From: Patescibacteria group bacterium
Lineage (GTDB): Bacteria; Patescibacteriota; Minisyncoccia; Minisyncoccales; JAHCRE01
Length of the DNA: 64,000 nt
Direction of reading: 5' to 3'
Assembly (NCBI GenBank): GCA_020148145.1
Contig: JAHCRE010000021.1
Span: forward strand, 2,538 to 66,537
Below are positions 10,901 to 63,663 of this stretch, one piece after another. The notes below the pieces were generated by a model, which saw only the letters and a program-made list of their open reading frames with translations, did no database searches and was not told the DNA's origin. Every line of letters starts with the position of its first letter. The first letter of the stretch is position 1. The position numbers and the translations under genes are program-made.

Positions 10901-11461
10901 AAAGGAAAAACAGTGGTAATGGAATATAAAATTCCAGCAAAGATGGCAATCTGGGTGGAGCCTGGACAAGAAATCAAAAAAGGTCAACAACTTTGTGAAG
11001 GAAATTTAGATTTAAAAGATTTTTTTAAACTCAAAGGAAAAGAGGAAACTCAGCGTTATATTGTTAAGGAAATTCAGAGCATTTACGTCTCCCAAGGAGC
11101 CACTATCCATGATAAACATATCGAAGTAATAGTTCGCCAGATGTTTTCTCGAGTAAAGATTAAAAATGCCGGGGATTCCTTTTTCACTCCCGGTGAAATT
11201 ATAGAGCGACCTAAGTTTTTAGAGGAGAATCTTAGACTAAAAAAAGAAAATAAAAAACCAGCTCAGGGAGATCTGGTTTTGCTTGGAATTTCCCGAGTAG
11301 CCTTGACTACTGATAGCTTTTTATCAGCAGCGTCTTTTCAGGAAACTTCTCGAGTTCTGATTAAAGCGGCCATTGAAGGAAAAGAAGATAAACTTTTGGG
11401 ATTGAAGGAGAATGTAATAATTGGTAAACTAATACCAGCAGGAACCGGGCTTAGAAAATGA
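7907..11461 (+). CDS. rpoC: DNA-directed RNA polymerase subunit beta'
   Basis: 1184 aa. Zn-binding CYCGRYRR..C..CGV, catalytic NADFDGDQM, trigger-loop and bridge-helix blocks. Confidence 0.97.
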   Translation: MRVADLESIKIRLASPEEILSWSHGEVIKPETINYRTQRPEKDGLFCERTFGPVKDYQCYCGRYRRIRYKGIICDRCGVEVTKSIVRRERMGHIKLATPCSHIWFLRGVPSRIGMVLNISAPQLERVIYFAAYIITKVDEKAKKKTLGEIEKEYKRKIKKIKNKKKEIQKLKEARDRAREEVLGIKPLKILLEIEYRNLSLKYGEIFEAGTGAESLRRIFEKVDLKKNILSLKKELEKASGITKRKIFRRLKLLQGMIRGGIRPEWMFLTILPVLPPDLRPMVQLDGGRYASSDLNDLYRRAINRNNRLKYLLEINAPEVIVRNEKRMLQEAVDALIDNGMRKGTMIRATTGGRRLLKSLADMLEGKQGRFRQNLLGKRVDYSGRSVIVVGPELKLNQCGLPKKMALELFKPFVIRKILDKELAYNVRGASRLIEGETDEVWAILEEVVKDKLVLLNRAPTLHRLGIQAFYPVLIEGEVIRIHPMVCGAFNADFDGDQMAIHLPLSAEAQKEASEIMLATLNLLKPATGTPVVTIYQDIVLGCYWLTKIKPGVKGEGKIFASPEEAKIAVKFSQVDLKAKIKVKIKDQVLETSVGRILFNRTLPEDYPFQNIRINIKELERIVGEILAKYPIEIYQEILDKIKNLGFEYSTISGISWGMDDLIVPPEKKEILERAEREIGQIETHFKKGLLSPEEKSSKIIEVWTKVKSKIERLVPETLPQHGSVFQMIDAGARGSWSQPVQMTGMKGLVINPAGQIIELPVKSSFKEGLDVLEYFISTHGARKGTADTALRTSTAGYLTRRLIDVSHEVIISEENCRDKKGTEILREDAEEIGQDFLLKIVGRIALEDIKKKKSKKKIVKKGEIIDWQKAKAIIEAKIEKIRIRSPLSCKSIRGICQKCYGWDLGKNQLIKLGEAVGIVAAQAIGEPGTQLTMRTFHLGGVAGGGDITFGLPRVEEIFEARIPKGKAEISHVEGKIIEITPAGIIKIKPKTKNPKLKKGKTVVMEYKIPAKMAIWVEPGQEIKKGQQLCEGNLDLKDFFKLKGKEETQRYIVKEIQSIYVSQGATIHDKHIEVIVRQMFSRVKIKNAGDSFFTPGEIIERPKFLEENLRLKKENKKPAQGDLVLLGISRVALTTDSFLSAASFQETSRVLIKAAIEGKEDKLLGLKENVIIGKLIPAGTGLRK

Positions 11462-13625: not shown

Positions 13626-14615
13626 ATGAAAAAGAAAACTGAGCAAAAAAAGGATTTGAAAGAGGCGGTAGCTGAGATTAAACAAAGATTTGGTGAGGGG
13701 GCGATTATGAAATTAAAAGAGGCCAAACCAGTCGCTGTTGATGTTATTCCTACCGGTTCAATTTCCTTAGATTTAGCCTTGGGAGTAAGTGGTATCCCTA
13801 GAGGAAGAGTAGTTGAAATTTTCGGACCTGAAGGAGGAGGGAAAACAACTTTGGCGCTTCATATTTTAGCTGAGGCTCAAAAAAGAGGAGGTCAAGCAGC
13901 CTTTATTGATGCTGAGCATGCTTTGGATCCTGATTGGGCAAAAAGAATCGGAGTAAATGTTGATGATCTTTTAATTTCCCAGCCAGATTCTGGAGAACAA
14001 GCCTTAGAGATCGTTGAGACCTTAGTTAGATCAGGAACAGTTGATGTCATTGTTATTGATTCAGTAGCTGCTTTAACTCCTCGGGCGGAAATTGCTGGTG
14101 AAATGGGAGAATTTCAAATCGGTCTCCAGGCTAGATTAATGTCGCAGGCCTTGAGAAAATTGTCTAGCATTATTTCAAAAACAAAGACATCGGTTATTTT
14201 CTTGAATCAGACTAGGATGAAAATTGGTATTCGCTTTGGAAACCCCGAAACCACCCCAGGAGGATTAGCCCTAAAATTTTATTCCTCAGTGAGAATTGCC
14301 TTGAGGAGAATTGCCCAGATAAAACATGGTGAGGAAATTATTGCTAGCAGAATAAAGGCAAAAATAGTTAAAAATAAAGTAGCCGCTCCTTTTAAAACCA
14401 CTGAATTCGATATTTATTACAATGAAGGAATTTCTTATCTCGCCGATATTTTAAATACCGGAGAGAAAGTGGATATTGTTAAAAAAGCCGGGAGTTGGTT
14501 TCAATATGAAAATATAAAACTGGGCCAGGGAATTGAGGGAGCAAAAAAATTTTTAAAAGAAAATCCAGAAATCACAAAGAAAATAGAAAAAGCTATAATA
14601 AGCCAAGCCAAATAA
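13626..14615 (+). CDS. recA: Recombinase RecA
   Basis: [13 protein letters not shown]-loop, [18 protein letters not shown]. Confidence 0.97.
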
Positions 14616-20248: not shown

Positions 20249-21403
20249 TTAATTTTCTTCGTAATAAAACGGAGTTCTTTCATTTAATATGTCGACAGCT
20301 CGATAGTTCCCCTTTCTTCTTATATCAGCTTCGTATTTAACGGTTATCTTTTTTTCCTTTGTGAGTATTCCTACTCCATGGTGAGGTAAAAGTTCAGTTT
20401 CTTTATTAATAGCAAAAATACCTAAGCTTCCCGGCTTGGGAGTAAGAGTACATCTTATTGCCCGAGGGAGAAATTTCTCTTCAAGATTGATATCATATCT
20501 AGTTTTATGAAAAGCATAATATTTTAAGTCCGTTTCTATGGCAGTCTTATAAAGATCGTTTCTGATTTTTCTGAATTTGGCAGGTAATTCTTTATCTTTG
20601 ATGTTGAGATTGTAAACATCAAAGAGATCTTCAAGAGAATGGGCTCTAGAATTAATACTGGTAAATAAAGTAGGGAAAAGTCCTTCTATTTTTTCTCGAA
20701 TAATTTTGTTTCCCTTATTGAACTTCTTGGATATTTCTCTGAGGTTCTCTTTATACTTTTTTCTAAATTCAGGTAGTACAGTTGTGATTTTAGCTAAATC
20801 ATGGAGTCTTATAGTGTCAGTTATACCGAGTTCTTTAATGAATTCGTTGACATAGTTGCAATAGTTTACTGCTTCTCTTTTTGAAATACCAAAAAAATTA
20901 TGGAAAACTACCCCTTCAGTTAAAATAATAAACTTTGCCCCTGGCTTATAAATACTATAGATTAATTGAGTAATGTCAAATAACCTTAAGATAAAGCCTA
21001 ATTCTCCTAAATCAGGTTTTCTCCGCGTAGTTTTTAAAAGATTGGGAGACTTAAAAGGCAATCCCAAAATCGTAAATTCTATAGACTTTCTCTTTTTGAT
21101 AAAATAATCTATTCTTTCAGTAAGAGTTTTTCTAAAATTTTTGATATATTTTATTTTCCCCGCTCTTATTTCCGGATTTTGAAAAATTCTTAAAATATTT
21201 GAAGCAATATCAAGATTTTTATCAAATCTAAAATCAACATCAGATATTCTCTGGATCTTCTTGACAAATTCTTTTAACTGAAAATCCGAAATTCGAATTT
21301 TCTTAAGAGTTTTGTATTTTTTTTGCTCCAGCCCCACCTCAAAAGGTTGGATTGAAGAAATTAAAGAATGAACTAGTAATTTATTAAAGTAGTTTATTTT
21401 CAT
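20249..21403 (-). CDS. PvcA/DIT1 (isonitrile synthase family)-like protein, paralog 2
   Basis: ILGLPFKSPNLLKTTRRKPDLGELGFILRL...IYKPGAKFIILTEGVVFHNFFGISKREAVNYCNYVNEFIKELG and C-terminal RCTLTPKPGSLGI...LPHHGVG. These fit my recollection of the PF05141 core (LPAFPxKSPN...LPD.aE...Y.PGA...I.SDGxVF.DL.G..D..V..Y; RLSIHP...G.K.GI; TPWH). Confidence 0.6.
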   Translation of the reverse strand: MKINYFNKLLVHSLISSIQPFEVGLEQKKYKTLKKIRISDFQLKEFVKKIQRISDVDFRFDKNLDIASNILRIFQNPEIRAGKIKYIKNFRKTLTERIDYFIKKRKSIEFTILGLPFKSPNLLKTTRRKPDLGELGFILRLFDITQLIYSIYKPGAKFIILTEGVVFHNFFGISKREAVNYCNYVNEFIKELGITDTIRLHDLAKITTVLPEFRKKYKENLREISKKFNKGNKIIREKIEGLFPTLFTSINSRAHSLEDLFDVYNLNIKDKELPAKFRKIRNDLYKTAIETDLKYYAFHKTRYDINLEEKFLPRAIRCTLTPKPGSLGIFAINKETELLPHHGVGILTKEKKITVKYEADIRRKGNYRAVDILNERTPFYYEEN

Positions 21404-21435
21404 AATAGAAAGAAAAGAGAGGCTGAGGCCAATAT

Positions 21436-22593
21436 TTAATTGACATCAGCCTCCTTGGGTTTGTAGTAAAAGGGTTGGTCTTCTTGATCATCGTCAACAT
21501 AGACTGCTACGACTTCTCTATACCCTAATAGGATTCGTATTAATAGCGTTGCTAAATGAGTAATCTCGACTGGTCCCTTTGGTATTACCACAGGTATCCC
21601 ATGATGAGGAGGACGCACTGTTGGTATTCTAAAGCAAAACCTCTCTGGTTTATAAGTGATGCTGAAATATAAGTGCTGAGGAAATCGCTTAGCTATTATT
21701 TCGGTTTTCGCTTCGTTAAATGCTACATATTTCCATGCTATTTCTTTTGCTCGATCCCTTAAAAACGCTCTTAGTTCTCTATGGCGAGAAGTCATATCTA
21801 TATAATGATCCCCATAATAGATAACTATAAGATCTTTTAATGGAATCTTGGTTACATCTTGGGACCAGAACATTACCTCCACAAAGGGGTCTATCTGGGA
21901 TCGGTATCTAAACCACTCTTCTCCAGTTCTTCCTTCCTTTAGTCGTCTCAGATTTTCTAAAGATTTTTGATATCTCTCATTAAATTCGGGTCCTTCTATT
22001 GCTTTTTTGAGATCTTTGATCTTTATTATCTTTTCTCCTCCAAGAAGTTTAATGAATCTTTTCATTGTCTCTAGGTACAAAGCCACATCTTCTTTTGATG
22101 CCCCAAGTAAACCTCGATATGCTTCCCCTTCTGCAAGTACAGTCCATTCTATCCCGGGTGGATATTCAGTTTTGACAGCTTCGTTTATCTGTAAAAGTCT
22201 TTGAACAAAGATTAGCTCTCCCAGATCAGGCGTTCTCCGGTTGGTTTTTAATGGATTTTTGTAGTTCTTAAATGGCCAGGCTATAAAAATTATCTTGATT
22301 GGTTCTCCTTCTCCGACGAATTCCTCAATCTTATTTAGATAGTGAACTCTTTTTGTTGCCTTGTCAATGTCTCGGTCTCCGTGTTTCTGAAAGAACTGAA
22401 TTTGTCTCCAGATTCTTCTAATTTCTCCTTTCCTAGTTCCTGCTAATTTATTAGGAACCCAGAAAAAGCGCTGGTTTTCTTCTATCGCCTCCCTAATCGA
22501 TCTAAGGTGTTTGCTTGGTATCCTGTCCACCGACAGTCTTCCGTTTTTCATTTCTAACCCTTTTACCCATTCTTCTATTTTTCCTTTTCTCAT
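21436..22593 (-). CDS. PvcA/DIT1 (isonitrile synthase family)-like protein, paralog 1
   Basis: FIAWPFKNYKNPLKTNRRTPDLGELIFVQRL...EYPPGIEWTVLAEGEAYRGLLGASKEDVALYLETMKRFIKLLG; ...FSITYKPERFCFRI...RPPHHGIPV. Strong SD AAGGAGG 8 nt upstream of the ATG, which is unusual in this window. Confidence 0.6.
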   Translation of the reverse strand: MRKGKIEEWVKGLEMKNGRLSVDRIPSKHLRSIREAIEENQRFFWVPNKLAGTRKGEIRRIWRQIQFFQKHGDRDIDKATKRVHYLNKIEEFVGEGEPIKIIFIAWPFKNYKNPLKTNRRTPDLGELIFVQRLLQINEAVKTEYPPGIEWTVLAEGEAYRGLLGASKEDVALYLETMKRFIKLLGGEKIIKIKDLKKAIEGPEFNERYQKSLENLRRLKEGRTGEEWFRYRSQIDPFVEVMFWSQDVTKIPLKDLIVIYYGDHYIDMTSRHRELRAFLRDRAKEIAWKYVAFNEAKTEIIAKRFPQHLYFSITYKPERFCFRIPTVRPPHHGIPVVIPKGPVEITHLATLLIRILLGYREVVAVYVDDDQEDQPFYYKPKEADVN

Positions 22594-37860: not shown

Positions 37861-38910
37861 ATGTTTTTTGTTTCTCAAAAAGAAAAAATGTTTTTTGCTG
37901 AGCATCTCTCTCTAATGATTAAAGGGGGAATACCTCTTACTGAGGCCTTAGAAACCTTAAAGAATGAGACTAAATCAAAGACCTTTAAAAAAACTTTAAA
38001 TAATATTTTAAAAAGAATTTTAGAAGGAGAGAGGCTAAACAAAAGCCTCGGACGTTATCCAAAAATTTTTGATAAATTTTTTTGTAATGTGGTTAAAGTA
38101 GGAGAAGAAAGCGGAACATTAGAAGAAAACCTAAAGTATTTAGCCGGCCAGATTCGATCAGATTATGAGATGAAAAAAAAGGTAAGTGGGGCTCTCATTT
38201 ATCCGGTAATTATCATTACAATGGCTTTAATAATTGCCTTAGTGGTAACCCTTTTCATTTTACCTAAAATAACTAATCTTTTTCAGTTTTTAGAAGTCGA
38301 ACTACCCCTGACTACCAGAGTTTTAATAGGTAGCACTTTCTTTTTTAAAAAATACTGGATTTTTATAATAATTGGAATAATTTTTTTAATTTCCGCTTTT
38401 AGAATTCTCCAAAGGTTTAAATCTACTAAATTTTATTTTGATAAAATCAGCTTTTCTTTGCCATTTTTTAGTCAAATTTTTAAAGGTCTTAATTTAGCTC
38501 GATTTTCTCGAACTCTTTATACTCTTTTAAAGAGTAGGATGCCAATTCTTGAGGCCTTAGAAATTTGTGCCGATACTCTCCCAAATGAAGTCTTTAAAAG
38601 AAGTTTAATTTTGGTTAGATCTGGCGTGGAACGGGGAGAAAAAATTAGTCAAGGATTTAAAAGATTTCCTCAAATCTTCCCCCCAATTTTTTCTCAAATG
38701 GTAGTGGTAGGGGAAAGATCAGGCGCCTTAGAAGAAAGTTTTTTATATCTGGCCGAGTTTCATGAGGGAGAAGTAGATTCTATTTTGAAAAATCTTTCCG
38801 GTATCTTGGAACCAATTTTACTAATTTTAGTTGGAGCTTTTGTTGCCTTTGTTGCTTTAGCAATTATTACCCCAATTTATCGATTTATCGGTGCCTTTAG
38901 ATTCAGGTAA
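37861..38910 (+). CDS. pilC: Type IV pilus platform protein PilC/GspF family (short N-terminus)
   Basis: Two T2SSF repeats (GIPLTEALETL...; RMPILEALEICAD...) and three TM segments. At 349 aa it lacks the about 50-60 aa N-terminal region of many PilC proteins. Confidence 0.88.
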   Translation: MFFVSQKEKMFFAEHLSLMIKGGIPLTEALETLKNETKSKTFKKTLNNILKRILEGERLNKSLGRYPKIFDKFFCNVVKVGEESGTLEENLKYLAGQIRSDYEMKKKVSGALIYPVIIITMALIIALVVTLFILPKITNLFQFLEVELPLTTRVLIGSTFFFKKYWIFIIIGIIFLISAFRILQRFKSTKFYFDKISFSLPFFSQIFKGLNLARFSRTLYTLLKSRMPILEALEICADTLPNEVFKRSLILVRSGVERGEKISQGFKRFPQIFPPIFSQMVVVGERSGALEESFLYLAEFHEGEVDSILKNLSGILEPILLILVGAFVAFVALAIITPIYRFIGAFRFR

Positions 38911-38914
38911 AAAA

Positions 38915-39538
38915 ATGAAGAGTTTTACCTTAATTGAATTTTTATTAGTGATTGGGATTATTGGAACCTTAATATCTTTTACCCTATCCTTGGGCTTTAG
39001 TTTTTATAAAAACCAACAGCTAGAAACCCACGGCCAAGAAATTTTGCAGATCCTTAGGAGGACCCAAGCTAAAGCAATGTCAGTTGAACTCGATTCTTCT
39101 TTCGGAGTTTATTTAACTGACGACAATTATACTCTTTTTAAAGGAAACTCTTATACCGGCAGAGACGCTCAATACGATGAAATTTTTAATTTAACCCAGA
39201 TTATAAAAATTAGTGGTCTTTCCGAAATTGTTTTTTTAAAAATAGAAGGATTGCCAAAAGAGAGCCCTGCCTATTGTGGAGGGATTTGTACTCCATGTAA
39301 TGAATTTACGAGCCAGAGACCATGTAGAAAACAAGATGGCTGTAGTTGGAATCGATTGTTAGGTCGGTGTACTGGTCCTTGTACTCCCTGCAATAACTAC
39401 CAAAATCAGGCTGAATGCGAAGATCAATCAGGTTGTTCTTGGTATCCAGCCAGTCGGGGCGGAAACATTATTTTAAGTAGCAATGGTGATAGTAGAACAA
39501 TAAATATAAATGAAATAGGAAGGGTAAACCTTGAATAA
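38915..39538 (+). CDS. Minor pilin/pseudopilin with a tandem 5-Cys repeat module
   Basis: MKSFTLIEFLLVIGIIGTLISF prepilin motif. C-terminal CGGICTPCNEFTSQRPCRKQDGCSW / CTGPCTPCNNYQNQAECEDQSGCSW. Confidence 0.7.
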   Translation: MKSFTLIEFLLVIGIIGTLISFTLSLGFSFYKNQQLETHGQEILQILRRTQAKAMSVELDSSFGVYLTDDNYTLFKGNSYTGRDAQYDEIFNLTQIIKISGLSEIVFLKIEGLPKESPAYCGGICTPCNEFTSQRPCRKQDGCSWNRLLGRCTGPCTPCNNYQNQAECEDQSGCSWYPASRGGNIILSSNGDSRTININEIGRVNLE

Positions 39539-39544
39539 TTGGCT

Positions 39545-40423
39545 ATGAATTCAATTAATTTAGGAAAAGGACAGTCTTTAATTGAACTTATTATTGCTAT
39601 AGGAATTTTTATAACAGTGATCAGTGGCTTAGCTTTTTTTGTACTTAATAGTTATCTCTCTGGCCTTTTGGCTTCGGAAATAACAATGGCAAATTTTTTG
39701 GCCGAGGAAGGAATAGAGGCAGCAAGGTCAATCAGAGATAATTCTTGGGACGATCTTTTAATTGGAAATCATGGCTTAGCGATTTCTGGAAATCATTGGG
39801 TTTTTCAGGGAAGCCAGGAAGATATAAGTAGTGAATTAAAAGAAGGGAAAAGGATTATCACGATTAAAAGCGTTGATTCTGATAGAAAAAAAATTACTTC
39901 CAAAGTTAATTGGCAATTTAATGAAGGAAAATCTCAAGAAGTTCAATTGATTACTTATTTCACTAATTGGCAAAAAATTACCAGAGTTGAAATAAGAAAA
40001 CCAACTGCCCATACTGATTCTGCTGGAAGAACCACTAGAGACTCTAATGCTTATGACTATCCAGATGGAACTACCTATGCTACTACTCACTATGATGCTA
40101 CAGCTGATCCCTCAATTACATTTCATACCTGGCAATTAGCAACTCAGAGTTATACCTCTTTGGTTTTGAAATATCGCTATCATGCTCAGGCAGCAGGAGA
40201 TGACAGGTATGCCATTACCTATTCTACAACTGGTTGTAGTGGGACTTTTACTGATTTGGTTTCTCCAACCTCGGCCGGTGCCTCTGATACTATCATTTCG
40301 GTTAATCTCTCTCCTTCCCAGGATTTATCCCAACTCTGTCTAAAAATTTATTCCATAAGAACCGGACAGGCTGACCATAGAAGGCTCTACACCAGAGATG
40401 TCTGGGCTGAGGGTATCTATTAA
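39545..40423 (+). CDS. Minor pilin/pseudopilin-like protein
   Basis: GKGQSLIELIIAIGIFITVISG prepilin-like N-terminus. The start could also be TTG 39539. Confidence 0.6.
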   Translation: MNSINLGKGQSLIELIIAIGIFITVISGLAFFVLNSYLSGLLASEITMANFLAEEGIEAARSIRDNSWDDLLIGNHGLAISGNHWVFQGSQEDISSELKEGKRIITIKSVDSDRKKITSKVNWQFNEGKSQEVQLITYFTNWQKITRVEIRKPTAHTDSAGRTTRDSNAYDYPDGTTYATTHYDATADPSITFHTWQLATQSYTSLVLKYRYHAQAAGDDRYAITYSTTGCSGTFTDLVSPTSAGASDTIISVNLSPSQDLSQLCLKIYSIRTGQADHRRLYTRDVWAEGIY

Positions 40424-40426
40424 TCT

Positions 40427-40942
40427 ATGAGAAATCAAGGATTTACCTTAATTGAATTTATAATTTATATTTCAATTGTTGTTGGGATTTTAGTTTTAAT
40501 GACTGGATTTTTATGGAATATTATTTTTGGTAACATCAAGGAAACTTCCTATCAGGAAGTTCAACAGAACGGTCGATTTGTTTTAACAAAAATAATCCAG
40601 GAAATAAAAAAAGCCACAGGTATTAATAATCCCTTACCGGGCGAATTAGCTAATTCTCTTTCTTTGGCCATGTCCGATTCTAATTTTGACCCAACAATAT
40701 TTGATCTTTTTCAGGGAAAGCTGAGGATCGCTCAAGGGATTGGTAATTCTTATGAATTAACTACAGATCGGGTAATTGTAACTGATCTCCGATTTACCAA
40801 TCTCTCTTACGAAAATACCCCAGGAACAATCAGAATAGAAATGACAATTGAGCATTCAAATCCTGCTAATCTAATCGAATACCAGGCCTCAACTAATCTA
40901 AAATCAACAGTTTCTTTGGTCCCTGGTGGAGCTGCCCCTTAA
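40427..40942 (+). CDS. Minor pilin/pseudopilin
   Basis: MRNQGFTLIEFIIYISIVVGILVL prepilin motif. Confidence 0.7.
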   Translation: MRNQGFTLIEFIIYISIVVGILVLMTGFLWNIIFGNIKETSYQEVQQNGRFVLTKIIQEIKKATGINNPLPGELANSLSLAMSDSNFDPTIFDLFQGKLRIAQGIGNSYELTTDRVIVTDLRFTNLSYENTPGTIRIEMTIEHSNPANLIEYQASTNLKSTVSLVPGGAAP

Positions 40943-40943
40943 T

Positions 40944-41372
40944 ATGAAATTAAATTTTATTAAAAAGAATCTTTCAGAGAGTCGCTGGCAACAAGAGCAA
41001 TCAGGCTTTATTGCCCTGATGACAGTTTTAATAATTTTTGCTGTCGCTCTATTGGTTGGTTTAAGCGTTAGCTTACTTAGTATTAGCGAGGCTACAATGG
41101 GATTTAAAAAAACTCAGTCTTCCCAGGCTTATTTCTTGGCCAATCTTTGTGCCGAGCAGGCGCTGGTGAAATTAAAAGAAAATATTAATTATTCTGGAAA
41201 TGAAACAATTGACATAGAAGGGGGTAATTGTCAAATTTTGCCAATTGAAGGGAATTGGAGTATAAAGGTTTTAGGAAGTTTCCAAAATCAAACAAAAAAG
41301 ATAAAAATTGAAATTTCTCAAATTAATCCAGAGATGATAATTTCTTCCTGGCAGGAAGTAGCAGATTTTTAA
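40944..41372 (+). CDS. PilX-like pilus assembly protein
   Basis: QSGFIALMTVLIIFAVALLVGLSV hydrophobic N-terminus. The ATG at 40944 follows the upstream stop; the track starts at GTG 40926. Confidence 0.5.
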   Translation: MKLNFIKKNLSESRWQQEQSGFIALMTVLIIFAVALLVGLSVSLLSISEATMGFKKTQSSQAYFLANLCAEQALVKLKENINYSGNETIDIEGGNCQILPIEGNWSIKVLGSFQNQTKKIKIEISQINPEMIISSWQEVADF

Positions 41373-41373
41373 T

Positions 41374-42447
41374 ATGCTTAATCTTTTTCAAAAACCCTTT
41401 GGTTTAGATATCTCTGATTATTCAATAGAGGTGATTTCTCTTGGCGGTTCAATAAAAAATCCCAAGCTTCAAGCCATGGGAAGAAAAATTTTAACTCCAG
41501 GAATTTTTAAGGATGGAAAAATTTTAAATAAAGAAGATCTAAAAAAAATTCTTAAAAATCTAATCCCCAGTCCTCAATTTGGAAAAATAAAAACAAAAAA
41601 ATTAATTTTTTCTATACCTGAATCCAAAAGTTTTATTCATATTCTTGAACTCCCAAAAGATTTAAAAAAACCAGAAATTTTAAAATTTATAAAATCCCAA
41701 GCCAGCCAGACCCTCCCCTTTTCTCTAACTGAACTTTATTTTGATTTTCAGATTAAAAATTTTGAAGTTCTCTTAGTGGCTGCTCCCAAAAATATTGTCA
41801 ATGATTATTTAGAGGTATTTAAATCTTGTCAGCTTCGACCGATAGCCTTGGAGGTTGAGTCAATGAGTTTAGCCCGGGCCTTAATCAAAGAAGAAAAGGA
41901 AATAATCCTAATTGCCGATATTGGTACTAGGATGACAAATTTCAGCCTTTTTGATAAAAAAAGATTGAGATTGAGTATTTCTATTCCTGTTGCCGGAAAT
42001 AAATTCAGCCAGGCAATTTCAGAAGAATTAAAAATTCCTCTTAAAGAAGCTGAAGATCTTAAAAGAAAGGTTGGTTTAAATCCAGAGATTAAAGAGGGAA
42101 GAATTTTTTTAATTTTGCAAAAAGAAATTCAAAAAATAATTAAGGAGATAAAAAATATTGAGAAATATTTTCAAAGAAAAGAAAAAAAGACTATTAAAAA
42201 AATAATTCTCGCTGGTGGTTCAACCGCTTTACCAAATATTTTAGAATATCTATCTGAAAATTTAGAAAAAGAAGTTATAATTCCTGATCCTTGGGTAAAG
42301 ATAAATATCGATATTTTAAAGAAAAAAAAATATTTTAAAGAAACCCTAAAGATTAACCAAATTTTTTACTCCACTGTTATTGGCTTGGCTTTGCGGGGAT
42401 TAGCTAAAAATCCCAAAAAAACTGGAATTAACCTAATTGGTAAGTAG
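41374..42447 (+). CDS. pilM: Type IV pilus assembly protein PilM (actin-like ATPase)
   Basis: FGLDISDYSIEVISL N-terminus, ...ILAGGSTALPNI..., and position in the pilus locus. Confidence 0.8.
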   Translation: MLNLFQKPFGLDISDYSIEVISLGGSIKNPKLQAMGRKILTPGIFKDGKILNKEDLKKILKNLIPSPQFGKIKTKKLIFSIPESKSFIHILELPKDLKKPEILKFIKSQASQTLPFSLTELYFDFQIKNFEVLLVAAPKNIVNDYLEVFKSCQLRPIALEVESMSLARALIKEEKEIILIADIGTRMTNFSLFDKKRLRLSISIPVAGNKFSQAISEELKIPLKEAEDLKRKVGLNPEIKEGRIFLILQKEIQKIIKEIKNIEKYFQRKEKKTIKKIILAGGSTALPNILEYLSENLEKEVIIPDPWVKINIDILKKKKYFKETLKINQIFYSTVIGLALRGLAKNPKKTGINLIGK

Positions 42448-54794: not shown

Positions 54795-55124
54795 TCCGGC
54801 GTAGCGCAATGGTAGCGCGGGTGCCTGTGAACTTATACGCAGCTTCCTCGAGAAATCGAGGTTGAAAAACGAGGTGAATTGCGGGAAGCCTAATCCGCCT
54901 TAGGCGGAATGGTAATCCGCAGCCAAGCCCTGTGAGATAATTTCACATCTCATAGGGAAGGTTCAGAGACTATCCCGAAAGGGAGTACCCATTCAGAGAG
55001 TAAATTCTGAATGGGGAAGCGCCTCGCTCCCACAATTTTTGGGAGATGAGATAGTCCACCCTTAGTGGAAACACTAGGATAAGGTGTAAGCACTAGGTTG
55101 TAGGTTCGAGTCCTACCGCCGGAG
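54795..55124 (+). tRNA. tRNA-Asn (GUU) interrupted by a group I intron (exons 54795-54828 and 55087-55124)
   Basis: Spliced product: TCCGGCG-TA-GCGC-AATGGTA-GCGC-G-GGTGC-CTGT/TAA-GCACT-AGGTT-GTAGG-TTCGAGT-CCTAC-CGCCGGA-G. Discriminator G73 fits Asn. Thr(UGU) is the alternative if splicing occurs after U33. Confidence 0.8.
54829..55086 (+). ncRNA. Group I intron (IC3-like, no ORF) in the tRNA anticodon loop
   Basis: AATGGTAATCCGCAGCCAAGCC and GAAGGTTCAGAGACTATCC closely match blocks I recall from the Azoarcus tRNA-Ile and cyanobacterial tRNA-Leu introns. P7 GACTATC/GATAGTC. P1: exon CUGU pairs with GCAG (54839-42), with U.G at the splice site. Terminal G at 55086. Confidence 0.85.
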
Positions 55125-55125
55125 C
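55103..55125 (+). repeat. Direct repeat copy 1 (tRNA-Asn 3' end), GGTTCGAGTCCTACCGCCGGAGC
   Basis: Identical 23-mer recurs at 58172-58194. Confidence 0.9.
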
Positions 55126-55194
55126 AGGCTAGTGCTCGATTCGAGCGACCGAGATGCCTTTGGCTTGTGTCCAGTCCGCAAAGCTGATATTTTT

Positions 55195-55214
55195 CGCCCG
55201 AGAGTTTTTCTCGG
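55195..55214 (+). terminator. Hairpin module beta (CCGAGAG-TTTT-TCTCGG), copy 1
   Basis: CGCCCGAGAGTTTTTCTCGG. Near-identical copies end at 58221 and 63663; an inverted half-copy lies at 58572-58584. Confidence 0.5.
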
Positions 55215-55253
55215 ACTTTTCGTTTTACAGGGAAGGAGATATAATGAGGTAAG

Positions 55254-56888
55254 ATGAAAAAAGCGATTTTAATAATATCCGTAATAATCCTTGTAATTGT
55301 TATATTGGTTTTTCTTTTTTTTGTTGGTTTTTCAAAGATATCAACAAATAAGGATATCTATAAAACAAGAGAAGAAGTTATTGTTTCTTTTTCTGATTTT
55401 AGACTACTTCGCTGTAACACTAGCCCAAGTATTACAAACATGTTATTTTATTATGAAACTTCAGAGGGCTGGAAAAGAATAATCCACGAAGACTGGCATG
55501 TTACCTGGGGAGGCATAGCTTGCGTTGATGGTAAGCCCGTACACGGTGTTCATCCAGGAGATATACAAAGATGTACTTTTTTTATCCTTCCATATAAATC
55601 GGGAACATATACTTGGGACTCTAAAGTTTATGAATCAAAAGGGGTGGAAGAAATTTGCGGAGAATTAGAGAAACCCGTTCCTTCTTTTCAATCAAAACCT
55701 GCCTCTCCTGGCAAATATAAAGTAAAATTTGGCAGTGCACAAAAAATTTTTGAGATTAAGGAAGCGATACTGCTAGAACAAATAATACCGCAGGGCGAAG
55801 AACAAGAAAAAGAAACTAGATCAAATAAAGTTCTGACATTACTTACCAAGGTGCCGGCAGACTACAGAAACTTTGCTGATCGTTATGTTGCGTTAAGCTC
55901 ATTGGATATCACAACCGGAGAAAAAACAGAACTTACCCGTTGGGCAGCCTGTGAAGCAACTATTGTACTGTCTCCAGATAAGAATAAGATAGCATATTTT
56001 ATAAAACCGAATGATCGATGCGAAAAAGAATACTATGAGGGAGGTGATGGTCATACAGAATTATGGATATCTGACATATCGGGTAAAGATAAACAGCCTG
56101 CCGCGCGATGGGTATGGAAATTCACTACCCCAAAGTGGTCAGCAGATGGAAAATATGTTGCGTATGACCGGGTCATTGAACACCCCTATCCGCAAGAAAG
56201 AGAACATATATTACTTGTGTATGATCTGCAGAAAAAGACTGAGCAATCTCTTGGATCATTTTTCGGAGCGGCTCATAAGATTATTGGATTTTCTCAAGGT
56301 AGCGAATCGGTCTATTATAATGATGGTCAATTCCTCTACAAAGTAGATATCTCAAACCAAGATAGAGAAAAAATATATACTCACGAATATGGCTTTTATC
56401 AGCACTTTGTGGTATCTCCGGATAGTCGCAGCATTGCTGTCTTTAAAGAGGAGGACTGGTACGGAGGGAAAACGACTCCTCTGGAAACAAAGATTGGGGT
56501 AATCGAAACGTCAACCGGAAAGTATCGCGAACTCTATAATGGCACAGACGCCTTCGCATCTTATACTTACCGAAATAGCTTCGTTTTTCTACCAGATAAT
56601 TCTCGTGTAGTATACGGAACGGCAAAAAAAGGTGAAGGAGGGTTGTGGGCTATTGATATAACTACAGGCGAACGAAAGGAATTAGAGGAAACTTCATCTT
56701 CAACTCTGCACGGAATAGCGCCAATAGCGCTATCTGCAGACGGCGATCTTGTGCTGTATAGCGGTTGGGCATCAGAAACAACATATTATTATACGATCTC
56801 CCTATCTACTGGCGTCGTCACAAACCTTGAGAATACCCGTACCGCTACGCCATACTCAGGAGAGAGATTTTTGGATTGGTTAAATTAA
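55254..56888 (+). CDS. Membrane-anchored PD40/TolB-like beta-propeller repeat protein
   Basis: N-terminal TM helix. Repeated ...SPD...IAY / SADGKYVAY / SPDSRSIAV / LPDNSRVVY / SADGDLVLY motifs. Visibly higher G+C than the core genes. Confidence 0.6.
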   Translation: MKKAILIISVIILVIVILVFLFFVGFSKISTNKDIYKTREEVIVSFSDFRLLRCNTSPSITNMLFYYETSEGWKRIIHEDWHVTWGGIACVDGKPVHGVHPGDIQRCTFFILPYKSGTYTWDSKVYESKGVEEICGELEKPVPSFQSKPASPGKYKVKFGSAQKIFEIKEAILLEQIIPQGEEQEKETRSNKVLTLLTKVPADYRNFADRYVALSSLDITTGEKTELTRWAACEATIVLSPDKNKIAYFIKPNDRCEKEYYEGGDGHTELWISDISGKDKQPAARWVWKFTTPKWSADGKYVAYDRVIEHPYPQEREHILLVYDLQKKTEQSLGSFFGAAHKIIGFSQGSESVYYNDGQFLYKVDISNQDREKIYTHEYGFYQHFVVSPDSRSIAVFKEEDWYGGKTTPLETKIGVIETSTGKYRELYNGTDAFASYTYRNSFVFLPDNSRVVYGTAKKGEGGLWAIDITTGERKELEETSSSTLHGIAPIALSADGDLVLYSGWASETTYYYTISLSTGVVTNLENTRTATPYSGERFLDWLN

Positions 56889-57081
56889 TTTTGGTTTAAC
56901 ACATATTTTTGGATCACCTAAAATTGCGTCTTCTTGCCGGGTTTCTGCCAAGGCGGTTCAGTCCTAAGCTCTTCGAAGGGTTTTTGTTTTGGAAAGAATG
57001 TGGTAAAACGAATAATTCAACCTCAACCGGAGAAAAAGCACGAACAAACATCAAGTCAAAACACTCTTTTGTGGTCATCCA

Positions 57082-57144
57082 GTAGGTTCTAATGTTGTCC
57101 ACGACTCGGAGCAGGTTAGTGCTCGGTTTGAGAGACCGAGCCGC
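57082..57144 (+). repeat. Degenerate tRNA-3'-end + flank repeat (module alpha), copy R2
   Basis: GTAGGTTCTAATGTTGTCCACGACTCGGAGCAGGTTAGTGCTCGGTTTGAGAGACCGAGCCGC. Compare tRNA end + flank GTAGGTTCGAGTCCTACCGCCGGAGCAGGCTAGTGCTCGATTCGAGCGACCGAG. Confidence 0.75.
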
Positions 57145-57278
57145 ATCTCATTTTCAGAATCAGTTCGAGAAAAAAATCGCCCTACCCCGCTAGGAAATCG
57201 AACTTTTCCGAACAAATAGAAATTCGCCGACGAGGCGAATTTTTGTTAGAATGAAATAAAAGATAATCTAATTAGCTT

Positions 57279-58055
57279 ATGGAGATAACTTTTTTAGGCA
57301 CTGGCGGAGTATTAGGAGTTCCTGTTTGGTCCTGTAATTGTAAAGTTTGTAAAGAAGAAATCAAGAAAGACAAAAGAAATATTAGGACAAGACCATCAAT
57401 TTTAGTTACTTCTGGAAATAAAAGAATACTTGTTGATACCGGCCCTGATTTTAGAGCCCAAATGCTAAGAGAAGGAATAAAAAAAATTGATTATGTTCTC
57501 TTAACTCACATTCATATGGATCATAGTGCTTGCCTGATGGAATTAAGAGCTGGAGGCAAACTCCAGTTAGAAATACCAAAAGAAGTCTACGAAGGATTGA
57601 AAGAAAACAGAAGAGTTTTAAGTTATTTATTCGCCAGAAATCCAGACATCAAAATTGACATATTTAAACCTAAAAAGATTGGAAATCTTTTTGTTGAACA
57701 AATTAAGGTTAAACATAAAAAAGATTATTCAGAAGAAGAACAACCAACTTTCGGCTTTCTTTTTATAGAAAATGGATACAGGGTTGCATATATTCCTGAC
57801 TTCTCTGAAGTAGTAGATAAAGAAAAGGTAAAAGGCTTAGATATTTTTATATGTGACGGTGCAACTCTTGAGACTAAGTGGGGTCATATAGGTATTAAAG
57901 GGGGTATTAAATTATATAAAGAACTTAAACCAAAATTAATGATTTTTACTCATTTAAACCACTCGCACTCACATAAAGAACTTGAGAAATACGTGAGTCA
58001 ATTCGGCAATATTAAATTAGCTTACGATGGTTTAACTATTAAGGCAAATGATTAG
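57279..58055 (+). CDS. MBL-fold metallo-hydrolase (PhnP/PqqB-like)
   Basis: HIHMDH motif; N-terminal CNCKVC cysteine cluster, as in PhnP-type enzymes. Confidence 0.72.
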   Translation: MEITFLGTGGVLGVPVWSCNCKVCKEEIKKDKRNIRTRPSILVTSGNKRILVDTGPDFRAQMLREGIKKIDYVLLTHIHMDHSACLMELRAGGKLQLEIPKEVYEGLKENRRVLSYLFARNPDIKIDIFKPKKIGNLFVEQIKVKHKKDYSEEEQPTFGFLFIENGYRVAYIPDFSEVVDKEKVKGLDIFICDGATLETKWGHIGIKGGIKLYKELKPKLMIFTHLNHSHSHKELEKYVSQFGNIKLAYDGLTIKAND

Positions 58056-58129
58056 AAAAATTAAATTATCAGACAAGGTATCCTTATTGCCCAATTCCCA
58101 AAAAACCAAACTCCAGTATTGTACTCTTT

Positions 58130-58221
58130 GGAGCAGACCGAGCCGCCTATCCCGTTAGGGCGACCGAGAGGGGTTCGAGTCCTACCGCCGGAGCCCGTCG
58201 CCCCGAGAGTTTTTCTCGGGG
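58130..58221 (+). repeat. Composite repeat R3: truncated alpha + GTTAGGGCGACCGAG hairpin + perfect 23-bp tRNA 3' end copy (58172-58194) + beta hairpin
   Basis: GGAGCAGACCGAGCCGCCTATCCCGTTAGGGCGACCGAGAGGGGTTCGAGTCCTACCGCCGGAGCCCGTCGCCCCGAGAGTTTTTCTCGGGG. Confidence 0.85.
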
Positions 58222-58286
58222 TTGATTTTGAGTTAGAGATTTGATAGAGTAGATTTAGATCGTTAACAAAAAATGGGAGTGAGAAG

Positions 58287-58508
58287 GTGAGTAATAGATA
58301 CCAAAACATATATACTATTGGCTTCTTTGTCACATTTATCGGGGCTTTGCTTTGTATGTTCGGTGTAATATGGGAATCCTTATTCTTCATAGCTCTTCCA
58401 ATGATAGTTATCGGAATAGCCTTCACCACATATGCGTCGTGGGATGACAGAGATTTGCGAGACACGAACCGCTGTAAGAACGAGGCCCAACAGAAGTGTG
58501 TAATCTAA
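58287..58508 (+). CDS. Small two-TM membrane protein (GTG start)
   Basis: 73 aa and hydrophobic, followed by a clean terminator. Function unknown. Confidence 0.45.
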   Translation: MSNRYQNIYTIGFFVTFIGALLCMFGVIWESLFFIALPMIVIGIAFTTYASWDDRDLRDTNRCKNEAQQKCVI

Positions 58509-58566: not shown

Positions 58567-58584
58567 TTCAACCCCGAGAAAAAC

Positions 58585-58647
58585 AGGTTCTAACATCGTC
58601 CGTCCCTCGGAGCAGGCTAGTGCTCGGTTCGAGGTGACCGAGCCGCC
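58585..58647 (+). repeat. Degenerate tRNA-3'-end + flank repeat (module alpha), copy R4
   Basis: AGGTTCTAACATCGTCCGTCCCTCGGAGCAGGCTAGTGCTCGGTTCGAGGTGACCGAGCCGCC. Confidence 0.8.
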
Positions 58648-58648
58648 T

Positions 58649-58682
58649 AAAAATCGCCAAGAAGGCGGTTTTTTAGTAGAAT
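58649..58682 (+). promoter_or_regulatory. Hairpin + T-run + TAGAAT -10 box module directly upstream of the ATG at 58689
   Basis: AAAAATCGCC-AAGAA-GGCGGTTTTTT then TAGAAT (58677-82), 6 nt before the ATG. Analogous modules lie at 57221-57252 (TAGAAT) and 61378-61409 (TATAAT). Confidence 0.5.
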
Positions 58683-58688
58683 GGGGTA

Positions 58689-60059
58689 ATGTTTATTAAA
58701 GAAGAAAAAACCAATATTAAATATCTCTTAATTGTAGTTGTTTTAGCTGCCATTGTTGGCGGAGGAATTTTACTTTATGCAAAACAGACCGTAAAAGAGT
58801 TAAGTTTTCTTAGCTACTTCCCAGAGATAAAAAAACCTGAAAAAAGGCCAGAAAAAAAGCCCGTCTATCTTAAATTATTTGAAGAAGTAAGGGAACAACT
58901 AATTTCTAAAAAAACTGATTTTTTGGAAGTTAATCTTGCTAAGATGAAAATAGGGCTTTACAAAAAGGGTCTTATGACAAAAGAGGTTTTTATTTTAACA
59001 AAAGGAGATCCTCAAGGTTGGGGAGGGTCGGCAGCTGGGATATATAAGGTTATATCTGGAAACAAGCTCAGCTTTTCGGTTATTTCAAATGTTTATATGC
59101 CATACGCTCTTCGCTATTACGGGAAGTATTACCTTCACGGAGAGCCCTATTATCCTGGGGGAGGGCAGCTTGATTCTTCAATTTCAGGAGGTTGTCTTCG
59201 TCTGAGCAACGAAGACGCAAAACTCATTTATGAATTAACCGAACTAGATATGCCTGTTTTAGTGACAGATAAAGAGAAGGATCACTATGAATATTCTAAG
59301 CAAAAATTATCCAGGTTTCCGGAAATTTCCGCTCAGAGTTATCTGGTGGCAGACTTGGATTCAGGATATGTTTTTGCCGAAAAGGATTCTCGGAAACGAC
59401 TTCCCGCGGCTTCATTAACAAAATTAATGACAGCTGTAGTTGTAGCTGAGAATATGAATTTAAGAAAACCTATTTTGGTAAAAGAAAAAATGCTTGAAGC
59501 TTACGGTTCTACCGAAGGACTGGAATCCGGTGAATGGTTTAGGGTGGTGGAATTGTTTTACCCTCTTTTGATAGAATCCTCTAATGATGCTGCCGAGGTT
59601 CTTAGTTATTTCTTAGGCAGAGAGAAAACTATCAAACTAATGAACGAGAAAGCCGAAGCTATTTTCATGGAGCAGACAGAATTTGTTGATCCTTCTGGTT
59701 TTGCTCCCGAAAACGTTTCCACGGCCCGAGACCTCTTTTATTTGGTCAGATACTTATTAAATAATCGTCCTCCAATTTTAGAGATTACCAAAGGGAAAGA
59801 GGTATTGAGCTTTGGAGAGGTTGATTTTGAAATTGAAGAGTTATGGAACAAGAATGTTTTTATTAACGACCCAACTTTTGTTGGCGGAAAGACGGGTTTT
59901 ATTAAGGCTTCTAAATACACGGCTGTGTTTATTTTTCGTTTTACCGCTCAAGACGGCACAGAACGTAACATAGTGATTATCCTTTTGGGCTCTGAAAATA
60001 ATGAGACCGATACCCAAAAAATTTACAAATGGCTTCAAGAAAATTATTTCGAAAAATAA
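58689..60059 (+). CDS. Membrane-anchored fusion: L,D-transpeptidase (YkuD) domain + D-alanyl-D-alanine carboxypeptidase (S11/PBP5-like) domain
   Basis: YkuD: YLHGEPY...SGGCLRLSNEDA. S11: ASLTKLMTA (SxxK), SSNDAA (SxN), GGKTGF (KTG). Confidence 0.8.
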   Translation: MFIKEEKTNIKYLLIVVVLAAIVGGGILLYAKQTVKELSFLSYFPEIKKPEKRPEKKPVYLKLFEEVREQLISKKTDFLEVNLAKMKIGLYKKGLMTKEVFILTKGDPQGWGGSAAGIYKVISGNKLSFSVISNVYMPYALRYYGKYYLHGEPYYPGGGQLDSSISGGCLRLSNEDAKLIYELTELDMPVLVTDKEKDHYEYSKQKLSRFPEISAQSYLVADLDSGYVFAEKDSRKRLPAASLTKLMTAVVVAENMNLRKPILVKEKMLEAYGSTEGLESGEWFRVVELFYPLLIESSNDAAEVLSYFLGREKTIKLMNEKAEAIFMEQTEFVDPSGFAPENVSTARDLFYLVRYLLNNRPPILEITKGKEVLSFGEVDFEIEELWNKNVFINDPTFVGGKTGFIKASKYTAVFIFRFTAQDGTERNIVIILLGSENNETDTQKIYKWLQENYFEK

Positions 60060-60180
60060 AAAAGTTATTTTGATTTCTCCAAATAAAACAGAATTTTTCT
60101 CGGGTTTTATTGTGCGGGGAAAGAGGTACAATAATATAAAAATAAAAGGTCGATAGATATAAATTAAAACAAATGAAAAT

Positions 60181-63612: not shown

Positions 63613-63663
63613 AGGTTCTAGACCGACTACGGGAGCCCGCCGCCCTGAGAGTTTTTCTCGGGG
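63613..63663 (+). repeat. Repeat R6 (T-arm-like AGGTTCTAGACCGAC + acceptor-like GGGAGCCCGCCGCCC + beta hairpin)
   Basis: ...ACGGGAGCCCGCCGCCCTGAGAGTTTTTCTCGGGG versus R3 GCCGGAGCCCGTCGCCCCGAGAGTTTTTCTCGGGG. Confidence 0.75.

Follow-up and report, generated by a model that had tools for sequence, protein, structure and literature searches.

A probable site-specific cassette array behind an intron-containing tRNA-Asn gene of a Patescibacteria group bacterium

The window analysed here, a 64,000-nt stretch of contig JAHCRE010000021.1 from a Patescibacteria group bacterium (assembly GCA_020148145.1), contains a tRNA-Asn(GTT) gene followed by a series of sites that derive from the 3′ end of this very gene. 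We lean towards the view that, starting at the tRNA-Asn 3′ end and reaching at least to 63.7 kb, the DNA forms a site-specific accretion or cassette array which consists mostly of single genes and was mobilised in trans, likely by a large serine recombinase. The sites and their arrangement recur in other genomes, the genes at the locus turn over among relatives, and genes for large serine recombinases abut such sites in related loci.

Results

Five sites derived from the tRNA-Asn 3′ end

An earlier note on this DNA had described a perfect 23-bp direct repeat that brackets about 3 kb. This repeat is borne out: the window contains exactly two copies of GGTTCGAGTCCTACCGCCGGAGC (55103-55125 and 58172-58194), which are both on the + strand and agree at 23/23 positions, the chance expectation being 0. 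The note was also right in placing the first copy inside a real tRNA-Asn(GTT), as in silico joining of the exons gives a canonical tRNA-Asn according to ARAGORN. Within this tRNA the 23-mer starts with the final two bases of the T-stem 5′ strand and continues through the T-loop and the 3′ strands of T-stem and acceptor to the discriminator and one base beyond it.

Downstream of the start of this repeat, five co-oriented (+) sites derived from a tRNA 3′ end are found between 55.1 and 63.7 kb in the order A, B, D, C, E (Table 1), that is, as tandem site-bounded modules which all lie at or behind the 3′ end of a conserved gene. They are of two types. Sites of type b correspond to the 23-mer and show the spacing of the tRNA; A is the live tRNA end, D the perfect copy and E a decayed copy at 63614. 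Copy D is not a tRNA because the T-stem 5′ strand is not preserved. Sites of type p, represented by B (57084) and C (58585), are 29-nt pseudo-T-arms of the form AGGTTCKAAYNTYGTCC....CYCGGAGC with five extra bases between GGTTCKA and CYCGGAGC. The sites are accompanied by a leader, termed h (AGGYTAGTG...TTCGAG.GACCGAG.CGCC), by a hairpin, termed T1 (CCCGAGAGTTTTTCTCGGGG), or, at site A, by both. Including leader h, modules B and C extend over 57084-57146 and 58585-58649, and the E module covers 63614-63663. An 18-mer hairpin (CCCGAGAGTTTTTCTCGG) is duplicated, with one copy after each 23-mer, and T1 is present in only three copies in 64 kb, every one of them after a b site.

Because module B (p plus h) is located inside the bracketed DNA, the segment consists of two single-gene cassettes. 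The repeat does mark DNA joined at the tRNA-Asn 3′ end, but the notion of one 3-kb tRNA-end element holds only in part. The array reaches at least 5.5 kb beyond the bracketed segment: site C is followed by a DD-carboxypeptidase/YkuD gene and several other genes, and then by site E. The latter (17/23 identical positions, with the same T1 leader as copy D) sits 5.4 kb past the segment originally reported, and its presence at 63614 means that the genes between 58.7 and 63.6 kb may also be accreted DNA.

Gene turnover behind tRNA-Asn in related loci

The RpoD proteins most similar to that of the window are 80-82% identical and belong to Candidatus Nealsonbacteria and other Patescibacteria. Five related loci (L082-L086) share the gene order dnaG-rpoD-tRNA-Asn and have intronless tRNA-Asn genes, while the genes after tRNA-Asn differ in each of them. 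Loci L084 and L085, which stem from two samples, encode identical RpoD proteins, and their divergence begins exactly after ...CCGCCGGAGC. The position behind tRNA-Asn is a hot spot of changing gene content.

Leader h is located directly 3′ of tRNA-Asn in L082 and L086. The native tRNA-Asn trailer of L082 and the stretch of site C, leader, terminator and TAGAAT box in the window share ~90% identity, which is what an attR site composed of P and B′ would show. In L084, a gene encoding a large serine recombinase of 526 amino acids (aa) is oriented on the opposite strand and ends inside the tRNA 3′ end. Beyond it are genes of a mobile-element type (HTH_17, N6/N4 DNA methylase, DEAD-type helicase); the attR site of this element is not within the 10 kb that were fetched. 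In L074 (11270-12709), which belongs to the Thermoleophilia, rpoD is followed by tRNA-Asn and then by a tyrosine integrase gene. Thus, the rpoD-tRNA-Asn synteny and integration at this tRNA extend well beyond the Candidate Phyla Radiation (CPR).

The p site as a family in metagenomes

A search pattern for p matched at least 120 metagenome contigs, mostly of CPR type. Since 20 of the 29 positions were fixed by the pattern, conservation at these positions within the set is by construction; abundance, polarity and context are not. Among the matches listed, p copies on both strands of one locus were never encountered (0/120). Several copies are present in at least 14 loci, with up to seven in 5.9 kb, and successive copies are separated by a median of 1,069 bp (range 168-2,563). 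Neighbouring genes are mostly co-oriented with p, namely 77 of 85 upstream, 57 of 67 downstream and 21 of 23 between copies, and wherever a contig carries tRNA-Asn, p is located downstream of it (all among the matches listed). A tRNA-Asn gene upstream of p on the same strand was found in at least 11 loci, including intron-containing genes that are missed by ARAGORN. The second copies in L083 and L086 have the same 29-nt form as sites B and C of the window. A seemingly alternative anchor of such arrays, tRNA-Gln, is probably an artefact of synteny: in the two loci covered by a recheck, L105 and L115, an intron-containing tRNA-Asn lies between tRNA-Gln and the array.

Typically, p is positioned after the terminator of the upstream gene (...AAAC|AGGTTC...). 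To the right of ...CGGAGC homology stops sharply and gives way to recurring leader classes which are unrelated to one another. The leader classes that follow p also follow real tRNA ends (b). The pattern also matched one viral contig, a phage or prophage in which a junction with low-GC DNA comes right after ...CGGAGC. The literal p sequence was found in no searchable paper, and in Rfam no family matched the b and p modules, the intron being the only match.

Serine recombinases at the sites and the spacing of half-sites

Among the matches listed, no protein family is encoded on more than six of the 120 p contigs, which means that no recombinase is obligatorily linked to p. The family that does recur at the sites is that of large serine recombinases (Resolvase, Recombinase and Zn_ribbon_recom domains), encoded on the opposite strand with the 3′ end of the gene overlapping the site. 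Such genes adjoin tRNA-Asn in L084 and L067, and p in L111, L132, L189 and L192. Homologs of the L084 enzyme (38-40% identity, E ~1e-95 to 1e-134) are encoded immediately to the right of p in L111, L132 and L189, and more distant large serine recombinases beside p in L192 and beside an intron-containing tRNA-Asn in L067. At the level of individual bases, the stop codon of the L084 recombinase (11264-11278) corresponds to CTA of the T-stem 3′ strand read in reverse complement, and the recombinase open reading frame (ORF) of L192 (6813-6897) continues through p. Given that these recombinase genes end inside an attachment site, recombination would alter the C-terminal tail of the enzyme.

By contrast, the tyrosine integrase implied by the 'classic attL/attR' wording of the earlier note does not agree with the large serine recombinases seen at related sites. 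A XerD sequence iterated with jackhmmer served as probe, and a search of 1,588 ORFs from the window and from the other loci fetched (mostly low-GC and of CPR type) detected no tyrosine recombinase. The controls were positive, as integrases were found with this probe in high-GC proviruses and in the rpoD-tRNA-Asn locus of Thermoleophilia.

GGTTCKA and CYCGGAGC are 8 nt apart in sites of the tRNA type, whereas 13 nt separate them in 156 copies of the p type; a single copy has 14 nt. In the attB sites of large serine integrases, the crossover and the distal motif contacted by the zinc-ribbon domain (ZD) are separated by 5 bp less than in the attP sites (Rutherford et al. 2013, PMC3783163). The spacings of 8 and 13 nt match this rule, so that on a serine-recombinase model b would be an attB-type and p an attP-type half-site; the motifs of the sites may correspondingly be assigned to the protein domains of the recombinase.

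Stand-alone b sites and modular cassettes

Copies of b are also found in other loci. In L155, 41 of 41 nt are identical to the linker TAGGGCGACCGAGAGG plus the 23-mer of copy D. Locus L112 displays the arrangement ...h-linker-b-h-terminator and is colinear with the predicted circle junction (sequence left of D, 23-mer, sequence right of A) over 102 nt with 86% identity, including both flanks. Judged from these alignments, copy D is a conserved composite unit of linker and 23-mer and not a private scar.

The metallo-β-lactamase (MBL) cassette of the window recurs in L218/L219 with 81% DNA identity over 855 bp, starting from its terminator/TAGAAT leader. In L218 it is preceded by a stand-alone b site (757-790; 22/23) which is located 8 nt after the stop codon of a gene for a DNA polymerase III δ′-like protein, on a contig without any tRNA. 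The L218 array is thus headed by a stand-alone b, holds the MBL cassette and has a p site further downstream. Whereas the cassette follows p plus h in the window, it follows a stand-alone b in L218/L219, and different genes come next. More distant MBL homologs reside in unrelated contexts without such sites. The fact that b (22/23) is better kept than the adjacent coding DNA with its 81% identity implies that the perfect identity of A and D is not simple evidence of a recent event; as far as can be read from sequence comparison, it can reflect selection on a site instead.

Exact matches to the 23-mer in viral contigs are all high-GC proviruses or attP sites of unrelated hosts and serve as precedent only. 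One of the unrelated high-GC contigs, L094, has the same block on both sides of a 10-kb provirus with a tyrosine integrase.

Genes and composition of the bracketed segment

The gene content given in the earlier note holds for the MBL-fold hydrolase, which is a clear match to Lactamase_B_2 (E 1.6e-28), but is less certain for the PD40 β-propeller protein. The latter, a 544-aa ORF with an N-terminal hydrophobic stretch, yields only weak matches (DPPIV_N, E 3.4e-4; Tricorn, faint), and its similarity to a Tricorn-like protein encoded at the same locus in L086 is not significant. In agreement with the note, the ORFs of the segment are devoid of any recombinase domain. The segment had also been called visibly richer in G+C. 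Upon calculation the difference proved marginal: the GC content is 0.382 compared with a window mean of 0.351, which is the 92nd percentile of equal-sized windows (maximum 0.406), and in tetranucleotide distance the segment reaches the 95th percentile. The third-position GC content (GC3) of the PD40-like gene, 0.31, falls within the spread seen in other genes, whereas the values of the MBL gene are below average (GC 0.32, GC3 0.23). With these percentiles and unremarkable GC3 values, we rejected the idea that 55126-58171 is compositionally foreign.

The MBL hydrolase has a weak precomputed Pfam match to Anti-Pycsar_Apyc1, a family that was also matched, without being marked as weak, by the homologs in L220-L222; it was not listed for the window protein in a Pfam scan at E<=0.01. 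These matches hint at a possible cyclic-nucleotide-degrading anti-defence role. Homologs of the hydrolase (L217-L222) occur in unrelated contexts, one of which looks archaeal (CDC48 and NFACT neighbours).

Cassette 3, which encodes a predicted membrane protein of 73 aa, is flanked by a 17-nt perfect inverted repeat (58209-58225 / 58568-58584). Its right arm is an inverted half of hairpin T1 and immediately precedes site C. An inversion or a small inserted element could have left this repeat behind.

Sequence data that bear on rearranged forms of the locus are limited. When the exact PD40-like, MBL and penicillin-binding (PBP) proteins were looked up, the matches listed were only short Logan contigs of one run and did not reveal an alternative junction; the exact 73-aa protein is not on record. 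Three of these contigs (L081, L217 and L096; SRR10836662), corresponding to 55109-57085, 57187-58184 and 58604-60171, break inside module copies. The exact repeats within the window are shorter than the k-mer of the assembler. The breaks therefore indicate that modules are multi-copy or polymorphic in that sample, which implies further module copies elsewhere in that genome or in co-occurring strains.

The group I intron of the host tRNA

Neither ARAGORN nor Rfam at the gathering threshold reports the unspliced tRNA-Asn because the gene is interrupted by a group I intron of 258 nt (Rfam RF00028, 88.7 bits, E 1.5e-22). It interrupts the anticodon at position 35/36, with U as the last base of the 5′ exon and G as the last base of the intron. 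An intron-containing tRNA-Asn of the same arrangement is also present in L067, L206, L115, L105, L153 and L200. This part of our findings is already known. Group I introns at position 35/36 of Patescibacteria tRNA-Asn that are invisible to standard tRNA finders have been published (PMC13011429), and we see no difference with respect to tRNA, insertion position or tool failure. The words 'integrase', 'pseudogene' and 'tRNA fragment' are absent from the main text of that paper. Whatever the fate of the array interpretation, intron-containing tRNAs conceal integration hot spots from standard annotation.

At a distance from the array (20249-22593, - strand), the window harbours two adjacent paralogs with a DIT1_PvcA domain (pyoverdine/dityrosine biosynthesis), which is uncommon in a reduced CPR genome.

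Table 1. Features of the tRNA-Asn locus and of the array downstream of it (window coordinates).
Feature	Position	Strand	Basis
tRNA-Asn(GTT) exon 1: acceptor 5′ strand, D-arm, anticodon stem, loop to position 35	54795..54828	+	Sequence; spliced form is tRNA-Asn (ARAGORN)
Group I intron, 258 nt, anticodon position 35/36	54829..55086	+	Rfam RF00028
tRNA-Asn exon 2, through discriminator G	55087..55124	+	In silico joining with exon 1
Site A, b-type 23-mer in live tRNA	55103..55125	+	Exact repeat
Leader h after site A, AGGCTAGTGCTCGATTCGAGCGACCGAGATGCCT	55126..55159	+	Same leader after tRNA-Asn in L082 and L086
Hairpin T1, first copy; followed by TATAAT-like box and PD40-like gene	55197..55216	+	Repeat analysis
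Cassette 1 gene: 544-aa membrane-anchored β-propeller-like protein	55254..56888	+	Weak PD40/Tricorn/DPPIV_N matches
Site B, p-type pseudo-T-arm AGGTTCTAATGTTGTCCACGACTCGGAGC	57084..57112	+	Repeat analysis
Leader h after site B	57113..57146	+	Comparison with other h copies
Terminator-like hairpin and TAGAAT box ahead of MBL gene	57220..57252	+	L218 MBL-cassette homology starts about here (57224)
Cassette 2 gene: MBL-fold hydrolase, 258 aa	57279..58055	+	Lactamase_B_2, E 1.6e-28
Internally deleted h remnant (GGAGCAG/ACCGAGCCGCCTA) and conserved linker ...TAGGGCGACCGAGAGG before copy D	58130..58171	+	
Site D, b-type 23-mer, 23/23	58172..58194	+	Second copy of reported repeat
Hairpin T1, second copy	58202..58221	+	Repeat analysis
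Cassette 3: 73-aa predicted membrane ORF, weak 8xMP match	58287..58508	+	
Site C, p-type pseudo-T-arm AGGTTCTAACATCGTCCGTCCCTCGGAGC	58585..58613	+	Repeat analysis
Leader h, terminator and TAGAAT box after site C	58614..58682	+	~90% identical to sequence directly 3′ of tRNA-Asn in L082
Site E, decayed b-type copy GGTTCTAGACCGACTACGGGAGC, 17/23, tRNA-type spacing	63614..63636	+	
Hairpin T1, third copy	63644..63663	+	Repeat analysis

Discussion

Taking into account the sites, their neighbours and the related loci, we propose that the array may have been built by repeated site-specific recombination at a point just after ...CGGAGC of the tRNA, where the exact crossover would have to be placed. Most likely, the enzyme responsible was a large serine recombinase provided in trans by a phage or some other element, in which case b would be the attB-type and p the attP-type half-site. 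Integration would leave the tRNA intact on the left (attL) and, on the right, p plus the former native trailer as a scar (attR). Sites B and C look like this predicted scar. The bracketed segment would correspondingly represent two cassettes, one with the PD40-like gene and one with the MBL hydrolase gene, neither of which has a recombinase of its own. The junction behaves as an exchange point in that the same leader classes, and also the MBL cassette, are found after either b or p, and the cassettes may still be mobile at present. The description of the segment in the earlier note as decayed or mobilised in trans is a fair one, as no recombinase is present in cis.

Several observations weigh against this proposal. 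No recombinase of any kind was detected in the array or the 64-kb window by domain scan, by tblastn for serine recombinases or by the XerD-probe search, and the contigs that encode the large serine recombinases closest to that of L084 have 51-54% GC and are possibly not from CPR bacteria. Canonical serine integration proceeds without a duplication of ~23 bp and leaves the b copies D and E unexplained; these therefore call for a Campbell-type or tyrosine-type event, or for incoming DNA that already carried b. Up to seven p sites per array would need many rounds of integration into an attB that is no longer canonical, and decay along the array is not monotonic. In an alternative alignment, p is not 5 nt longer than b but 2 nt shorter than the stretch from variable loop to end of the tRNA, which means that the 5-bp argument rests on motif spacing and not on unambiguous homology. 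The right-hand flanks comprise many unrelated leader classes and, by inspection, have no evident inverted symmetry to b or p, in contrast to what is canonical for sites of serine integrases. Finally, neither product of excision was encountered. An excised circle (predicted 55126-58171) was not observed, and the exact predicted empty-site junction (tRNA, 23-mer and CCGTCGCCCC) is absent from metagenomes of the Joint Genome Institute (JGI), a search of low power: the negative result is uninformative because the exact RpoD of the window is absent from the index of encoding contigs, and the nearest relatives are only ~82% identical in this protein.

The duplicated 23-mer is what one would expect if a single 3-kb island had been put into tRNA-Asn by a tyrosine integrase, the two copies being attL and attR, and if the integrase had been lost or the island were moved, like a cis-mobilizable element (CIME), by an integrase encoded elsewhere. 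The block of identity, from T-stem and T-loop to one base past the discriminator, has the usual extent of att sites in tRNA genes; the provirus of L094 provides a precedent for its use by a tyrosine integrase, albeit on a high-GC contig that is unrelated; the attP site that would be predicted has a colinear counterpart in L112; and serial accretion would account for copy E, which is older, decayed and followed by the same hairpin. We nevertheless consider such an island unlikely. An att-type module, B, splits the segment internally, and the composition of the segment is not foreign. The conservation of D and its left linker in L155 and L112, together with the 22/23 match of the stand-alone b in L218 beside DNA of 81% identity, indicates that identity of the repeats dates no event. 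A probe that works on controls picked up no tyrosine recombinase in the window or the other loci searched, mostly low-GC and CPR-type, and no empty site was detected, an observation of low power.

It is also conceivable that no dedicated recombinase is involved and that modules of tRNA end, terminator and promoter are spread by RecA-dependent recombination, gene conversion and DNA uptake while being conserved as transcription punctuation. RecA (13626-14615) and a type IV pilus cluster (T2SS-F and PilM domains; 37861-42447) are encoded in the window and fit uptake and homologous recombination, the modules carry terminator-like hairpins and TAGAAT/TATAAT boxes, and a Campbell-type single crossover on ~23-60 bp of homology would give direct repeats of the observed kind. 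The breaks of Logan contigs at module copies, which are multi-copy in the sample, are likewise in line with it. However, p itself is placed behind the upstream terminator and ahead of the next promoter and shows features of neither; it has a fixed 29-nt form in at least 120 contigs, with strict strand polarity and anchoring to tRNA-Asn. The sharp break of homology at ...CGGAGC with unrelated leaders to its right and the serine recombinase genes that abut sites in six loci are further features which make this explanation improbable in our eyes. Least probable by far is a function of the sites as RNA, in which tRNA-like 3′ structures would guide processing by RNase P/Z or stabilise mRNAs. The sites do derive from a T-arm and acceptor strand, and the first h copy is a trailer upstream of the terminator, co-transcribed with the tRNA. 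Yet, the consensus fold of nine b or p plus h units is weak (-7.8 kcal/mol, covariation term +0.19), and we rejected a conserved RNA structure on these values. Moreover, the T-stem is, by inspection, unable to form in p, p usually comes after the terminator of the upstream gene, and Rfam matched no family other than the intron.

If the proposed trans-acting serine recombination is extended to the other p-bearing contigs, it is tempting to speculate about a gene-capture system of CPR bacteria such as Nealsonbacteria, which would be integron-like but mechanistically distinct. A large serine recombinase acting in trans and delivered by phages or plasmids would insert and excise promoter-bearing single-gene cassettes that end in the 29-nt mimic of the tRNA-Asn end (attP-type), with the tRNA-Asn end itself or its stand-alone copies as targets (attB-type). 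Recombination between b^x and p^x would again yield sites of these two types, so that no directionality factor would be needed to reverse the reaction. We regard a system of this kind as possible but doubtful.

The genomes of CPR bacteria are tiny and considered poor in mobile elements, so that little is understood of how accessory genes come and go. A conserved recombination site in the guise of a tRNA end, which punctuates arrays of envelope, hydrolase and unknown genes and is present in at least 120 contigs, would suggest that these bacteria possess a dedicated route of gene turnover. The site would also serve as a simple sequence handle on the variable gene pool of CPR in metagenomes. If the link to serine recombinases holds, b and p would represent natural attB- and attP-type half-sites that originate from one tRNA end.

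Tandem islands arise by serial accretion at tRNA genes, and CIMEs are att-flanked elements without integrase. The array shares with both the insertion at a tRNA 3′ end, direct repeats of the 3′ part of the tRNA and modules without a recombinase of their own, and older copies are likewise located further downstream and are more decayed (site E). It differs in its tiny units of ~0.4-2 kb with usually one gene, in the alternation of p-type sites, which do not have the tRNA spacing, with tRNA-type copies, and in the recombinases at related sites, which are serine and not tyrosine enzymes. Of the hallmarks of a tyrosine-integrase island, the tRNA-end repeat is present, whereas an adjacent integrase and a deviant composition were not found.

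In the composite islands of the staphylococcal and enterococcal cassette chromosome type (SCC/ECC), CcrAB recombinases act at the 3′ end of rlmH, where ccr-less modules are bounded by direct repeats. A study on such islands (PMC6222049) describes large serine recombinases and insertion at the 3′ end of a housekeeping gene. Here as there, a conserved gene is left intact by insertion at its 3′ end, the cargo is highly variable, and modules without recombinase are presumably moved in trans. Unlike SCC/ECC, the array has as its target a tRNA or a stand-alone copy of its end instead of rlmH, and it displays two spacing classes that are 5 bp apart, single-gene cassettes and no ccr-like gene.

Chromosomal integrons are composed of IntI, attI and arrays of attC cassettes, with a homogeneous repeat in sedentary integrons. 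The array resembles them in its co-oriented, mostly single-gene cassettes of ~1 kb with a conserved and homogeneous end repeat and one fixed anchor. However, there is no IntI or other tyrosine recombinase, rpoD and tRNA-Asn are located upstream, and the anchor is a tRNA end and not attI; the repeat is no palindromic attC hairpin, as the above folding energy and covariation term indicate, and the cassettes carry promoter-like boxes and terminators of their own. The likeness to integrons is limited to layout, since neither IntI nor attC hairpins, which define them, were found.

With the attB and attP sites of serine integrases (PMC3783163) the array has in common half-site versions with a 5-bp shift of the distal motif (8 compared with 13 nt) and, in related loci, a recombinase gene immediately beside the site. 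It departs from them in that a clear quasi-palindromic right partner half-site is not seen by inspection, b copies are duplicated and the crossover is placed by comparison of junctions. Seen against these known systems, the array can be described as an accretion or cassette array that is anchored at a tRNA, has two spacing classes of sites derived from the tRNA end and is probably serviced in trans by serine recombinases.

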